Origin: Myxococcales bacterium
Lineage (GTDB): Bacteria > Myxococcota_A > UBA9042
Length of the DNA: 31,396 nucleotides
Direction of reading: 5' to 3'
Assembly (NCBI GenBank): GCA_037441385.1
Contig: JBBISH010000081.1
Location: forward strand, 1 to 31,396
Position numbers: made by a program. Below, piece by piece: positions 24,701-27,700 of this stretch (positions within the stretch are counted from its first letter, which is position 1; each line of letters starts with the position of its first letter).

Positions 24701-27700
24701 GACCATTTGCCCAGGTCTGCTTGCTTGGGGCGCTAGGATCACCCTTCTGGCTGGGCTACGCCACCTGGATATGGGCAAACTTTTCGCGCAATTGACGCTT
24801 GAGGACCTTGCCCGTGGCGCCCAGGGGCAGGGCATCGACGAACTCCACGGCGTCGGGCAGCTGCCACTTGATGATCCGCGCCTCCAAGAACGTCAAGAGT
24901 TCCGCGGCCTCTAGCTCTGCGCCGGGCGCCCGCACCACGATGAGCAGGGGGCGCTCGGTCCACTTGGCGCTGGGTACGCCGATCGCCGCAGCCTGGGCGA
25001 CCTTGGGGTGGCTCATCGCGGCGTTCTCCAGGTCGATCGACGAGATCCACTCGCCGCCCGACTTGATGACGTCTTTGCTGCGGTCGGTGATTTGCATGTA
25101 GCCGTCGGCGTCGATGGTGGCGATGTCGCCCGTGTAGAACCAGTCGCCGTCGTGGTTTTCGTCGCGGTCGCGGTGGAAATAGGCGCTGGCGACCCACGGG
25201 CCGCGCACTTGCAGGTGGCCGGGGGTTTCGCCGTCGTGCGGCAAGATCCGGTGGTCGTCGTCGACCAGGCGCAGGTCGATGCCATAGATGGGTCGCCCCT
25301 GTTTCTTCTTGATTTCAAGCAGGTCGGCGCTGTTCAGTCCGGCGTGCTTGGGCAAGAGCTGGTTGGCGGTGCCCAGCGGGCTGGTCTCGGTCATGCCCCA
25401 GGCGTGGATGACGCGGGCGCCGTGGTCGCGCTCGAAGGCCTCGATCATGCTGGGCGGACAGGCGGCGCCGCCGATCGTGACTTTTTGCACGCCGTGGAGT
25501 GTTGCGCCGACTGATTTGCAGTGGTTGAGCAGGCCGAGCCACACCGTGGGGACGCCGAGCAGGCTGGTCACGCGCTCTTGCTCGATGAGCTCCAACAGGT
25601 TCTTGCCGTCGAGTCCCGGGCCGGGCAAGACGAGCTTGCTGCCGACCATGGCGGCGGCATAGGGCACGCCCCAGGCGTTGACGTGGAACATCGGCACGAC
25701 GGGCAGGGTCACGTCGGCGGCGCAGAGGCCCAGCGAATCGACCATGGCGACCGCGTACGAGTGCAGCACGGTCGAGCGGTGCGAATACAGCACGCCCTTG
25801 GGATTGCCGGCGGTGCCGGACGTGTAACACAAAGCGCTGGCTTGGTTTTCGTCGAGCTTGGGCCAAGCGAACTCCTCGGGCTGGCCGGCGAGGAGGGATT
25901 CGTAGTCGCCCAGACCCGGCAGCTGCAGGTCGGCGGGCAAGTGTTCGGCAGCCGTCAGCGCGATGTACCGCTCGACCGCCAGGCCCTGGTGAGCGACGAA
26001 CTGGGCCAACTTGACAAACGTCAAGTCAAAGAACAGCAGCTTGTCCTCGGCATGGTCAACGATGTAGCGCAGTTGGTCGGTGGGCAGCCGCGGGTTGATG
26101 GTGTGCAACACCGCGCCCATGCCCGAGACGGCAAAGTACAACTCCAGGTGCCGCTGGGTGTTCCAGCCCAGGGTGGCGACGCGGTCGCCGGGCTGGACGC
26201 CCAGGGCCTGCAGGGCGTGCGCCAGCTGCCGGGCACGCTTGGCGACTTGGCCCCAGTTGGAGCGCACGATGGGGCCCTCGACCGTGCGCGTGATGACCTC
26301 GACGCTGGGGTGGAAGGTAGCGGCAAACTCGATCTGACTCGAAATCAGCAGCGGTTGCTGCATCATCAACCCAAGCATGGCAGGCTCCCTGTCGGCCGCG
26401 ATGGCGACGACCGCGAGCCTACGGGCCGCTTGGGGCAGCGGTCAAGCCGCCGTTGCTCCGGCGCGACAGAAATGTGGGGGGCATTTTCTACTGCCGCATT
26501 GCAAAGGACTTTCTGTCCGCCTGGCCCTCCCGGCCCGGCGAGTAGAGGTTGGGGGGCATTTTCTGAAGCCGGTGTTCCGGCTCCCGGCCGGAGTGACGTT
26601 GTTGCGGCGCGGCCGCCGGTTCGGGCAAACCTCGCGGCTGCGGCAGGCGAAGTCGAACAATTCCGAACGGTAGAAAATGCCCCCCATCTTTCCGTCTGCC
26701 TTGACCCAAATACCCTCGCGCGCATACTGACGGGGCACTGGTCATGTGCGCGACAAGGTGGAGCATGGCAATGGCATCGAACTGGGCTGGTCGCCGCTTG
26801 GTGGCGGCGGTGGTGGCACTAGCGGGCACGTGCACGGCCGTGATGGCCGTGGCGATGCCGATCTACGTCAAGACGTTGACCGGCAAGACGATTCCCCTTG
26901 ATGTGGCCCCCAGCGAGTCGATCGAGGGCGTCAAGGCGATGATTCAAGCCAAAGAGGGCTACCCGCCGGCCGCGCAGACCTTGATGTTTGCCGGCAAGAC
27001 CTTGTTGGAGAACCACACCCTGTCTGACTACAACATCCAGAAAGAGGCGACGCTGAACCTGATCATCGATTTCTGCGTCGCCAACGCCGTGGTCTGCACG
27101 GCCGCCGACGACTGCCACACCGCCGGCACCTGCGCCCCGGCTACCGGACTCTGCAGCGCCGCTACCGCCACCGACGGCACCGCCTGCAGCGATGGCGACG
27201 CGTGCACCAGCGCCGATCAATGCCTGGCCGGCCTCTGCAAAGGGACGGCGGTGCCGGGGTGCGGCGACGTCGACGCGGGCGCAACTCAACCGGATTCTGG
27301 GACTATGGACGCGGTCACCAGCGCCGACGCCAGTACAGCTACTGCGGCGGATGCGTCCGCCGACCCGGACGGGGGCGCCTCTACGGCCCCGCTCGCCGAT
27401 GCCCCAAGTGGAGACGGCAAAGGAGCGCAGGATGCCGCCTCGTCCCCGGCCGAGAGCGGCGGCGACTCCGGGTGCCAGGCAGCCACCGGGGCGGGCAGCT
27501 GCGGCACGTGGCTGACCCTTGCCTTGCTGGGGGCGATGGTGGTGCGGCGGCGTGCCGACCGGCGAGTCGCGTGGCCGTAGCCTTGTCTGTGCCGTCTGCC
27601 GGCCGTGCCGTTTGGCTACCCGGACGCGGTGCGGACAGCCCTCAATCTGCTTCAAACGGACGCCGGCTCAAAGCGGCGCGGCGGCGGCGGCGACGCCTTC

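Follow-up and report, generated by a model that had tools for sequence, protein, structure and literature searches.

A myxobacterial protein with a probably exported ubiquitin head, a native Cys-rich stalk and a MYXO-CTERM-like tail

We analyzed a 31,396-nucleotide stretch of DNA from a Myxococcales bacterium (GenBank assembly GCA_037441385.1, contig JBBISH010000081.1), which is referred to below as the window. The source organism is a subsurface myxobacterium. The gene under study, P0001 (g03452), and the elements in and around it are as follows:

26465-26696, no strand assigned: MITE-like dispersed element, bounded by terminal inverted repeats of 27 nt and containing TGGGGGGCATTTTCT three times
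26701-26728, plus strand: promoter-like TTGACC-16 nt-CATACT, a consensus match only
26754-26762, plus strand: Shine-Dalgarno-like AAGGTGGAG, 8 nt upstream of the ATG at 26771, read from the sequence
26771-27580, plus strand: P0001 coding sequence, 269 aa plus stop
26771-26854, plus strand: putative signal peptide, residues 1-28, consisting of MASNWAGRR, a hydrophobic core and AVA, with probable cleavage before Met29
26855-27076, plus strand: ubiquitin (beta-grasp) domain, residues 29-102, from PF00240, PDB alignment and AlphaFold, ending in ...LNLIIDFC and not in ...LVLRLRGG
27077-27268, plus strand: Cys-rich stalk, residues 103-166, a single 55-aa, 8-Cys repeat unit with the flanking C102 and C165
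27269-27457, plus strand: low-complexity Ala/Asp/Ser/Gly linker, residues 167-229, predicted to be disordered
27458-27577, plus strand: MYXO-CTERM-like tail, residues 230-269, with Cys235, Cys244, a hydrophobic stretch at 247-258 and RRRADRR

An earlier note on this DNA had placed an open reading frame of 269 residues at 26771-27580 on the plus strand, and the sequence bore this out. A longer reading from an alternative start at 26744 is possible. The Shine-Dalgarno-like sequence favors the start at 26771 over those at 26744, 26765 and 26855. The promoter-like site was found once, compared with a mean of 0.1 in shuffled sequences; no terminator-like site was found, and an Rfam search of positions 24300-27800 returned no RNA family match. 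The arms of the MITE-like element (26465-26491 and 26670-26696) are 89% complementary, and its internal motif occurs 121 times in this genome at up to one mismatch, against 0 for the reversed control. The element is intergenic context upstream of the gene and forms no part of the P0001 protein.

The gene lies in the middle of the contig, with AMP-binding, SnoaL and MarR genes as its neighbors. Its GC3 is 0.833 overall and reaches 0.865 within the ubiquitin part, neighboring genes range from 0.79 to 0.89, and the GC content of the contig is 0.671 against 0.669 for the genome; these values agree with the figures behind an earlier claim of host-like composition. Since the GC3 of the ubiquitin part matches that of the neighboring genes and the gene is placed mid-contig, it is not contamination. 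When 5.6 kb of DNA was searched against 10 genomes of the same genus, only repeat elements and Cys-repeat matches were returned, with no syntenic block.

Residues 31-99 of P0001 matched Pfam PF00240 at 72 bits (cut 25.4, E 3.3e-20), which places the N-terminal domain in that family, and PDB ubiquitin chains aligned with residues 28-99 at an E of about 1e-24 per single unit. In the AlphaFold model, residues 29-99 have a pLDDT of 92-96 and follow the strand-strand-helix-strand-strand order. The head differs from eukaryotic ubiquitin at 24-25 of its first 72 residues, corresponding to 65-67% identity; in comparison with human-type ubiquitin, 25 substitutions were counted over the same stretch, including R42T, I44M, H68N and R72D. 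The ubiquitin domain is real and of eukaryotic type, as had been claimed. It is also among the most diverged heads that we saw, and its Ile44 patch is altered, which weakens readings based on mimicry of eukaryotic ubiquitin. A Cys occupies ubiquitin position 74, near the end of the fold, and the chain then continues for 167 more residues. A conjugatable ubiquitin exposes a C-terminal LRLRGG, either at the chain end or through processing, and P0001 offers neither; it also has the changes R42T and R72D. Because the Gly-Gly is missing and the chain runs on past the domain, this ubiquitin cannot act as a conjugatable modifier, in agreement with the earlier note. Searches of the genome for E2 (PF00179) and UCH (PF00443) gave no match, but since the control genomes likewise gave none, this negative is uninformative.

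The 28 residues that precede the ubiquitin fold look like a signal peptide, with a basic n-region and a hydrophobic core followed by AVA immediately before ubiquitin Met1 (AVA/M, the slash marking the junction). We judged the cleavage site by eye and by comparison with relatives, and the AlphaFold model has a helix at residues 4-22. The same type of junction recurs in a metagenome relative, P0057 (SAALA/MQIF), and as AxA/MQIFV in four other genomes of the taxonomic class; in two further genomes of this class, a linker separates the signal peptide from the ubiquitin. The earlier claim that P0001 is exported gains support from this recurrence. We also considered a lipoprotein signal peptide (LAGTC) and rejected it: a Thr at position -1 would be unusual, and P0057 lacks a Cys at that place.

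The segment that follows the ubiquitin head belongs to a repeat that is abundant in this genome and its relatives. Hundreds of repeat units in all 60 relatives searched align with residues 104-160 at 50-66% identity, and tblastn returned 201 HSPs in the genome itself, that is, 200 besides the stalk of P0001. In relatives, the 55-aa repeat forms tandem arrays in giant surface proteins. We took a spacing pattern from 31 units at 8 loci of relatives, and the P0001 stalk fits it (..C-5-C-5-C-6..8-C-9..12-C-5-C-5-C-4-C, with CH.AG.C and DG..C.DG.AC motifs). Among the matches listed, the 120 longer proteins that share the repeat belong to the Cys-rich-repeat or MYXO-CTERM proteins of Myxococcota; their heads vary widely, and PF00240 occurs in none of these 120. 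The unit reached the cut-off of no Pfam or NCBIfam family, and NCBIfam gave nothing at E up to 1; DUF7107 matched the unit at 19.1 bits (cut 24.6). Pfam Dicty_CTDC scored 42.9 bits on the repeat array of a relative, with no match to the P0001 unit. Judged by sequence, the stalk is native to the host, and this bacterial group uses the repeat routinely as an extracellular module. The modelled stalk has a pLDDT of 72-93, and the pLDDT falls below 50 over residues 171-245. No second copy of the linker was found elsewhere in the genome.

The C-terminal tail has the layout of a MYXO-CTERM sorting signal, but it scores under the model cut-off. According to PMC11980579, such tails have three parts, namely a Cys motif, a transmembrane helix and an Arg cluster; P0001 combines all three with an N-terminal signal peptide, and AlphaFold places a helix at residues 245-263. 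Against TIGR03901, for which the cut is 20 bits, the tail scored 14.0 bits by hmmscan and 18.3 bits in a six-frame search of the genome (C81:27458-27553), so that the earlier statement that it falls below the cut holds. It ranks 26th of the 46 matches to this model in the genome, 22 of which are over the cut, and the tail of the ortholog P0057 passes at 25.6 bits. The surface anchor proposed in the earlier note therefore stands as far as the three-part design and the predicted helix go, but the model score does not back it in P0001 itself. Surface anchoring of P0001 is plausible, on the evidence of sequence features and the structural model. A myxosortase gene had also been claimed in this genome, which is 90.9% complete. 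The MrtX model NF040593 did match at C1:48022-48324 of the genome (G000) with 87.8 bits, but this is below the 180-bit cut-off and spans model positions 133-232 only, so that the claim is confirmed only in part, over the CPBP domain.

The exact architecture was found in only one other protein among the matches examined, the metagenome protein P0057 (268 aa, called P0285 in the earlier note, whose description of it was reproduced). It shares 64% identity with P0001 across 66% of the query. An alignment of 181 aa through head and stalk likewise gives 64% identity with all 10 Cys kept, which counts as evidence of selection. Region searches of a 5.8-billion-protein set returned nothing but P0057 across the ubiquitin-stalk junction, and a degenerate DNA pattern of this junction had 0 matches in metagenome_contigs. 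A ubiquitin domain is carried by 10 of the 107 genomes of the taxonomic class; the ubiquitin part of P0001 was found in none of the 10 same-genus and none of the 36 same-family genomes searched, an absence that leaves a conserved function in the lineage thinly supported. The ubiquitin-headed proteins of two genomes of the class (G056 and G043) end without a MYXO-CTERM tail, which indicates that surface anchoring is not a rule there. In a Polyangiaceae protein (L039), the tail is similar to MYXO-CTERM by eye, but it was set aside since TIGR03901 does not match it.

Exported ubiquitin heads extend far beyond this architecture. We found at least 592 prokaryote genome stretches that encode a ubiquitin relative. 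In the best 80 of these loci, a signal peptide usually adjoins ubiquitin Met1 directly, and diverse anchors follow; a crude signal-peptide rule was passed by 64 of the 82 ubiquitin ORFs at these loci, and about 8 others look like misses of the rule. The anchors elsewhere include IPTL-CTERM (above the cut-off in 7 proteins), a T9SS tail (1), an autotransporter barrel (2) and MYXO-CTERM, and the genomes with ubiquitin-tipped exported proteins are labelled with at least 14 phyla. Our literature search found no paper describing a bacterial class of signal peptide plus ubiquitin head; the only studied relatives that it returned were the free secreted toxins BfUbb and BoUbb. On these sequence comparisons, P0001 is one member of a broad bacterial class of such proteins and not an isolated oddity. 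The earlier restriction to one genome plus one metagenome contig is correct for the exact architecture, but it does not apply to exported ubiquitin-headed proteins in general. Most bacterial heads are 86-99% identical to eukaryotic ubiquitin, compared with the 65-67% of P0001. A quick tree was a star in which only 2 of 82 inner branches reached an SH-aLRT of 95. Given this star, the donor cannot be named, and arrival via another bacterium is as possible as direct transfer from a eukaryote. The earlier description of the head as eukaryote-derived thus agrees with its eukaryotic type, but the tree does not establish a direct transfer into this lineage.

Among known proteins, the closest in the ubiquitin part are BfUbb of Bacteroides fragilis and BoUbb of B. 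ovatus, both secreted homologues of ubiquitin (PMC3352274, PMC5705921, PMC11467351). BfUbb is described there as 63% identical to human ubiquitin with a 28-aa signal sequence (PMC3352274), and both proteins are described as secreted toxins that enter through a SusCD transporter, act on a periplasmic PPIase and depend on a disulfide at the C-terminus (PMC11467351, PMC3352274). Compared by published features, P0001 and BfUbb both place the signal sequence immediately ahead of the ubiquitin fold, lack Gly-Gly and carry a Cys where the fold ends, and neither genome shows conjugation machinery nearby. It thus shares with the BfUbb/BUbb proteins the signal peptide and a roughly 60-65%-identical fold without Gly-Gly, but it is not a free-standing protein of about 76 aa. 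Those proteins are released and small (~76 aa) and end in a Cys/disulfide, whereas mature P0001 would have 241 aa with stalk, linker and anchor; P0001 also comes from another phylum and a subsurface habitat.

The rest of the chain resembles TraA of Myxococcus xanthus and other MYXO-CTERM proteins. As presented in PMC11980579, the shared parts are a signal peptide, a distal head, Cys-rich repeats, a disordered region, and a Cys motif with a transmembrane helix and an Arg cluster; in TraA, the myxosortase MrtX cuts this tail, and TraA ends up on the cell surface. P0001 differs in having ubiquitin as its head in place of the variable recognition domain of TraA, a single repeat unit to which NCBIfam assigned no family, and a tail under the TIGR03901 cut-off. 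With the other bacterial ubiquitin-headed proteins, P0001 shares the AxA/M(Q)IFV junction, a ubiquitin at the mature N-terminus that usually lacks a Gly-Gly stop, and, behind it, a passenger or anchor particular to the lineage; it differs in using the Myxococcota Cys-rich repeat and a MYXO-CTERM-type tail, and in its lower identity to ubiquitin. Eukaryotic proteins with a built-in ubiquitin-like domain, such as Rad23, and the ubiquitin-ribosomal protein fusions also begin a longer chain with the ubiquitin fold, but they are cytosolic, the fusions are cleaved after Gly-Gly, and they have neither a signal peptide nor a bacterial sorting tail; NCBIfam rad23 matched P0001 at 38 bits (cut 207) over the ubiquitin-like part only. 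Pup and the Ubl/E1/E2 anti-phage operons act in the cytoplasm, are conjugated via the C-terminus and have distant sequence similarity to ubiquitin, whereas P0001 appears to be exported and unconjugatable and is closely similar to ubiquitin.

Overall, we suggest that P0001 is probably a modular cell-envelope display protein with ubiquitin as its head, followed by a stalk, a flexible linker and, at the C-terminus, a sorting tail. Sec export and cleavage by signal peptidase I would produce a mature protein of 241 aa that starts at ubiquitin Met1, and disulfides would form in the Cys-rich unit in the periplasm. A tail Cys may then be lipidated and the helix removed by a CPBP-type myxosortase, after which the protein would be moved to the cell surface by analogy with TraA, for which PMC11980579 reports that such placement was shown experimentally. 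The ubiquitin head, farthest from the membrane, could serve as a binding or mimicry module. It may have been joined to a host-type stalk and anchor by domain shuffling and diverged later, and P0001 would then be the myxobacterial version of a widespread class to which each lineage contributes its own anchor.

Other readings of the gene were weighed against this one. P0001 could be an antibacterial toxin of the BfUbb type, whose head is freed by proteolysis of the linker, or is passed on while still attached to its outer-membrane lipid anchor, and binds a periplasmic target, such as a PPIase, in competitors or prey. BfUbb and BoUbb, the sole studied exported bacterial ubiquitins that we found, are reported in PMC11467351 and PMC3352274 to bind a periplasmic PPIase, and P0001 has the 28-aa signal sequence, the ~63-67% identity, the lack of Gly-Gly and the Cys at position 74 that recall BfUbb, as well as a linker predicted to be disordered. 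The analogy strains at the 167 further residues with stalk and anchor, which the free-standing toxins lack, and at the adjoining AMP-binding, SnoaL and MarR genes, among which immunity or import genes are not evident; moreover, the import of BfUbb uses a SusCD pair that is specific to Bacteroides. We therefore regard a toxin as unlikely. The head might instead be a stable N-terminal cap without a specific ligand, which aids export, solubility or protease resistance. In eukaryotes, N-terminal ubiquitin fusions give chaperone-like help to their fusion partners, and the ubiquitin of the 80 best loci sits at the extreme mature N-terminus before unrelated passengers and anchors of many phyla, which suits a generic, partner-independent role. 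The head of P0001 is, however, its sole globular cargo, with only a 64-aa stalk and the linker left to chaperone, and a cap has no obvious need for the 86-99% identity of most bacterial copies, an identity that recent spread could also account for. We consider this reading improbable to a similar degree.

Two further readings would deny the protein a function or a place outside the cell. Strong divergence of the head and its absence from all 36 same-family genomes could mark P0001 as a functionless, decaying relic of horizontal transfer or as an assembly chimera. We hold this to be very unlikely: the gene has an uninterrupted reading frame and host-adapted codon use, the AlphaFold model shows clean domain boundaries, and P0057, from an independent assembly, retains the architecture with its 64% identity and every Cys. 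Translation might also begin at Met29, which is both ubiquitin Met1 and an ATG (26855), and the product would stay unexported in the cytoplasm, a ubiquitin-like domain held by a membrane anchor at its C-terminus. Nothing like a Shine-Dalgarno sequence lies ahead of 26855, whereas 26771 is preceded by AAGGTGGAG; the 28 upstream codons resemble a signal peptide that occupies the same place in P0057 and dozens of loci, and the ten conserved Cys and the MYXO-CTERM-type tail indicate an extracytoplasmic protein, which leaves this start scarcely credible.

Within the display reading of P0001, a bolder version can be conceived. Many phyla may purposely put ubiquitin at the tips of surface proteins to engage a conserved outside partner, and the myxobacterial head, with its 25 substitutions, the loss of E1-contact arginines and the altered Ile44 patch, might have been retooled into a module that, seated on an outer-membrane lipid anchor, works in recognition or antagonism upon contact, and is perhaps passed between cells like other myxobacterial outer-membrane cargo. 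We offer this as speculation that is rather unlikely to be right; if true, it would mean that ubiquitin has an extracellular biology not yet described.

Ubiquitin is the textbook example of a eukaryote-only protein, and in P0001 it would have been remodelled into the head of a surface-protein chassis native to myxobacteria. Being old enough to have diverged, the myxobacterial head is useful in that it shows which surfaces of ubiquitin are kept outside the eukaryotic cell. If the heads are mere stable caps, it would still be striking that a eukaryotic gene was captured and shuffled among domains again and again. If they bind something specific, they would open a new field, that of extracellular ubiquitin in contacts between microbes or between microbes and eukaryotes.

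The P0001 gene, 269 codons long, occupies 26771-27580 on the forward strand of the window, and its reading frame is already open from 26744. A Shine-Dalgarno-like sequence, AAGGTGGAG, lies at 26754-26762, 8 nt 5′ of the ATG at 26771. Upstream of the ATG at 26855, the codon of Met29, inspection of the sequence found nothing comparable to it.

Parts of P0001, the 269-aa product of g03452
First 28 residues, forward strand: signal-peptide-like N-terminus (sequence)
Met29 to about residue 102, forward strand: ubiquitin domain (Pfam, PDB alignment)
Residues 103-166, forward strand: Cys-rich segment (sequence)
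Between the Cys-rich segment and the tail, forward strand: Ala/Asp/Ser/Gly-rich segment (sequence)
Cys235, Cys244, hydrophobic stretch 247-258 and RRRADRR, forward strand: tail (sequence)

Judged by sequence comparison, the ubiquitin assignment of the head is far above chance. The Pfam ubiquitin model (PF00240) matched residues 31-99 with 72 bits (cut-off 25.4; E 3.3e-20), and residues 28-99 aligned with PDB ubiquitin chains at about 1e-24 per single unit. The head is 65-67% identical to eukaryotic ubiquitin, with 24-25 differences in the first 72 residues, and its fold ends in LNLIIDFC instead of the ubiquitin sequence LVLRLRGG. An AlphaFold2 model (68-row alignment, mean pLDDT 70.8) predicted a helix at residues 4-22, a ubiquitin-type strand-strand-helix-strand-strand order at residues 29-99 (pLDDT 92-96), a structured Cys-rich unit (pLDDT 72-93), disorder at residues 171-245 (pLDDT below 50) and a second helix at residues 245-263. 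An earlier note had described an exported, probably surface-anchored ubiquitin adapted to its host; the finding is real, and that reading is essentially right. Its base composition figures were reproduced, with a GC3 of 0.865 for the ubiquitin part and 0.833 for the whole gene, and a GC of 0.671 for the window and 0.669 for the genome. A GC3 so like that of the host points either to long residence or to a GC-rich donor.

Our case for export was based on sequence inspection, the signal peptide being judged by eye, and on comparison with relatives. The one metagenome protein that the note had reported to be of the same build, P0057, was recovered (268 aa, 64% identity over 66% of the query) and carries a textbook signal peptide, with SAALA immediately N-terminal to MQIFVKT. 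PF00240 matched in 10 of the 107 genomes of the window's class, the window's own among them. Four of these (G037, G056, G071 and G043) encode large proteins in which a signal peptide ending in AxA abuts MQIFV, and two (G103 and G105) have a signal peptide and a short linker before the ubiquitin. A complete 9.3-Mb genome of the class, G106, encodes a 76-aa ubiquitin-like protein with a Gly-Gly end (L017, C1:8764173-8764388; MDLTIK...LRKRGG) in which no signal peptide was seen; the protein most closely related to it, from G105, carries a signal peptide and terminates in LRLRKI, and the two form a clade (SH-aLRT 100). The sole match in G045 (L022, C45:2817-2900) is a 28-aa C-terminal remnant of eukaryotic type, LRLRGG-stop. 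The open frame next to it is integrase/transposase-like, as if a mobile element had cut through a ubiquitin gene. The G098 match lies on a 684-bp contig and resembles eukaryotic polyubiquitin.

The same pattern was observed beyond this class. When prokaryotes were scanned with one genome per species, at least 592 stretches encoding a ubiquitin relative came up, and the best 80 loci were parsed into 82 ubiquitin ORFs; this list is skewed to query-like sequences and holds many metagenome bins, so that the counts describe those loci and not all bacteria. A crude rule (a hydrophobic run plus small residues at -1 and -3) was passed by 64 of the 82 ORFs. About 8 of the 18 failures were still signal-peptide-like by eye, and 4 were contigs of 305-530 bp carrying polyubiquitin or a ubiquitin-ribosomal fusion, a probable eukaryotic contamination. 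Among the best prokaryote loci, the junction is as a rule AxA|MQIFV; therefore, signal peptidase would leave ubiquitin Met1 at the mature N-terminus.

The P0001 tail has a Cys motif, a transmembrane helix and an Arg cluster, the three-part design by which MYXO-CTERM is defined in the consulted part of PMC11980579; by analogy, the pathway described there would carry over to P0001. The MYXO-CTERM model TIGR03901 scored the tail at 14.0-18.3 bits (cut-off 20), the lower figure being that of the earlier note, and the P0057 tail passed with the expected 25.6 bits. Since the window's genome holds 22 matches above the cut-off, the MYXO-CTERM system is, on sequence grounds, evidently in use there. The myxosortase gene proposed previously corresponds to one match to the MrtX model NF040593 (87.8 bits), which covers the CPBP protease part only and falls far below the cut-off of 180. 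A protein of a Polyangiaceae MAG (L039) was seen by eye to combine a signal peptide and ubiquitin with a linker of Gly/Ala/Ser and a tail of Cys, a hydrophobic stretch and RRRR; TIGR03901 did not match that tail. In the product of a Myxococcota locus outside the class (L115, G130:C157:15406-15609), a signal peptide and ubiquitin are followed by a short hydrophobic tail of Gly/Ala/Leu without basic residues.

The stalk is a host-native part: residues 104-160 make up a single unit of an eight-Cys repeat of 55 aa (VxC-x5-C-H-x-AG-x-C ... DG-x2-C-x-DG-x-AC ... G-x-C). A search of 60 relatives gave well over 1000 matches, nearly all in the repeat region (41-66% identity among the matches listed), and many units stand there in tandem within open frames of 1000-4900 aa. 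In the window's own genome, tblastn with the stalk gave 201 HSPs, counting the stalk itself, some of them in a large repeat ORF at the contig start. This frame, at 3-4223 on the forward strand, is at least 1406 aa long, is truncated by the contig start and has the same type of Cys-rich repeat; the stalk matches it at 87-260, 657-824 and 3921-4082 (41-48% identity). Longer proteins sharing the repeat in a set of 5.8 billion proteins come from Myxococcales, Polyangiaceae or 'Deltaproteobacteria' assemblies wherever the source is named, several under the names 'cysteine-rich repeat protein' or 'MYXO-CTERM domain-containing protein'. They carry diverse other domains, including Kelch, subtilase, GDSL lipase and lamin-tail, and all 120 of those listed lack a ubiquitin domain. 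No curated Pfam or NCBIfam family covers the unit; Pfam Dicty_CTDC matched a relative's repeat array (42.9 bits), and DUF7107 scored the window's unit at 19.1 bits, under its cut-off. A search of the genome found no second copy of the linker or tail. Because the repeat is host-native, we regard the gene as a mosaic of a ubiquitin head and a chassis of local parts.

The neighbouring genes encode an AMP-binding enzyme, a SnoaL-like protein, a MarR regulator and a hybrid histidine kinase, and this neighbourhood gave no functional hint. Two repeats lie upstream.

Repeats upstream of the P0001 gene
26465-26696, no strand assigned: MITE-like element with 27-nt terminal inverted repeats, 75 nt upstream of the gene
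24560-24701: intergenic repeat of about 135 bp, distinct from the MITE-like element, between the histidine-kinase and AMP-binding genes

The MITE-like element, for which Rfam returned no match, contains TGGGGGGCATTTTCT, which occurs 121 times in the genome at up to 1 mismatch (reversed control, 0), often as inverted pairs 200-270 bp apart. The other repeat has at least 27 further copies in the genome (78-83% identity) and weaker copies in genomes of the same genus.

In the head, the E1-contact arginines are replaced (R42T, R72D), the LRLRGG tail is gone and six of seven lysines are kept; P0001 cannot act as a modifier. The Ile44 patch is conservatively altered in P0001 (L8 kept, I44M, H68N, V70I) and intact in P0057. 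Its build of head, Cys-rich repeats, disordered region and MYXO-CTERM is also that of TraA, the Myxococcus xanthus surface protein, and P0001 thus reads as a TraA-style display protein whose head is ubiquitin. We favour, as the most likely reading, a surface-displayed binding or mimicry head for a putative ligand, the architecture-and-display reading as a whole being probable. Beside such a build, release as a toxin in the manner of BfUbb is unlikely. A head serving as a stability cap without a ligand likewise seems improbable. That P0001 stays unexported is very hard to credit alongside its signal-peptide-like N-terminus. A relic or artefact is also highly unlikely: P0001 and P0057 are 64% identical over 181 aa with head, stalk and all 10 Cys conserved, which argues for selection on the whole arrangement.

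In a quick maximum-likelihood tree of 89 ubiquitin domains (72 columns), the ubiquitins of the window and P0057 were joined (SH-aLRT 97); the tree is otherwise a star, with 2 of 82 inner branches at SH-aLRT 95 or more. Nine derived residues are common to both (N25G, I36Y, D39A, R42T, Q49T, E51L, R54H, R72D and R74C), so that they descend from one ancestor, already modified. That ancestor may have come straight from a eukaryote or, equally, via another bacterium. The stalk is 64-66% identical to repeats of another genus in the family and at most 54% to those of its own genome, leaving room for whole-gene transfer among myxobacteria. Ubiquitin matches were found in 13 of 401 sampled Myxococcota genomes, 10 of them within the window's class, and in none of the 36 same-family genomes searched.

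Ubiquitin-headed proteins carry labels of at least 14 phyla, and the loci include long contigs of isolates: Ruminococcus albus 8, Paracidovorax valerianellae, Sphingomonas canadensis, two Saccharibacillus species, Marivivens geojensis and Rhodopirellula maiorica. Most bacterial heads are 86-99% identical to eukaryotic ubiquitin; few of those compared are as diverged as the heads of the window (67%) and P0057 (72%). Gly-Gly 75-76 is kept in 15 of 90 ubiquitin ORFs, and the chain ends there in only 4. An NCBIfam scan behind the heads of 58 proteins found IPTL-CTERM above the cut-off in 7, a choice-of-anchor U domain in 5, an autotransporter barrel in 2 and a T9SS sorting tail in 1, as well as Listeria-Bacteroides repeats, GloVer repeats (G056 and G043) and fibrinogen-like GGGWT domains (G037); sub-threshold matches hint at choline-binding-type and peptidoglycan-binding regions. 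L014 (G103:C67) and L058 (Sphingomonas canadensis) encode an exported ubiquitin that has a signal peptide, an intact conjugation tail in the form of a complete LRLRGG directly before the stop, and no fused domain. Two Oscillospiraceae MAGs (L029 and L042) have two adjacent genes, each with a signal peptide and ubiquitin head, of which one is near-canonical, with LRLRGG and then further domains, and its partner is strongly diverged. Several short or low-GC contigs filed under bacterial or archaeal genomes (L063, L071, L090 and L095, 305-530 bp; L015, 684 bp; L114 and L117, GC 0.36-0.37), some of them from isolates of Paracoccus marinus, Hyphobacterium and Halorubellus, encode either polyubiquitin, a ubiquitin-ribosomal fusion or a ubiquitin that lacks a signal peptide; they are probably eukaryotic or viral contamination, not countable as prokaryote ubiquitin.

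In the literature searched, as far as the consulted parts of the papers extend, the only eukaryote-type ubiquitins of bacteria are the Bacteroides toxins BfUbb and BoUbb (PMC3352274, PMC11467351, PMC5705921). The methods of PMC11467351 describe a search of the NCBI database for bacterial BfUbb homologues, with BoUbb alone reported in the portion consulted; parts of PMC11354881 and PMC6194340 were also consulted on the topic. No description of ubiquitin-headed anchored surface proteins was found in this literature, which lies mostly outside subscription journals. Exported bacterial ubiquitin is thus already known, and P0001 is a variant of it set in a native myxobacterial head-stalk-anchor chassis; the broad class to which it belongs appears to be undescribed so far.
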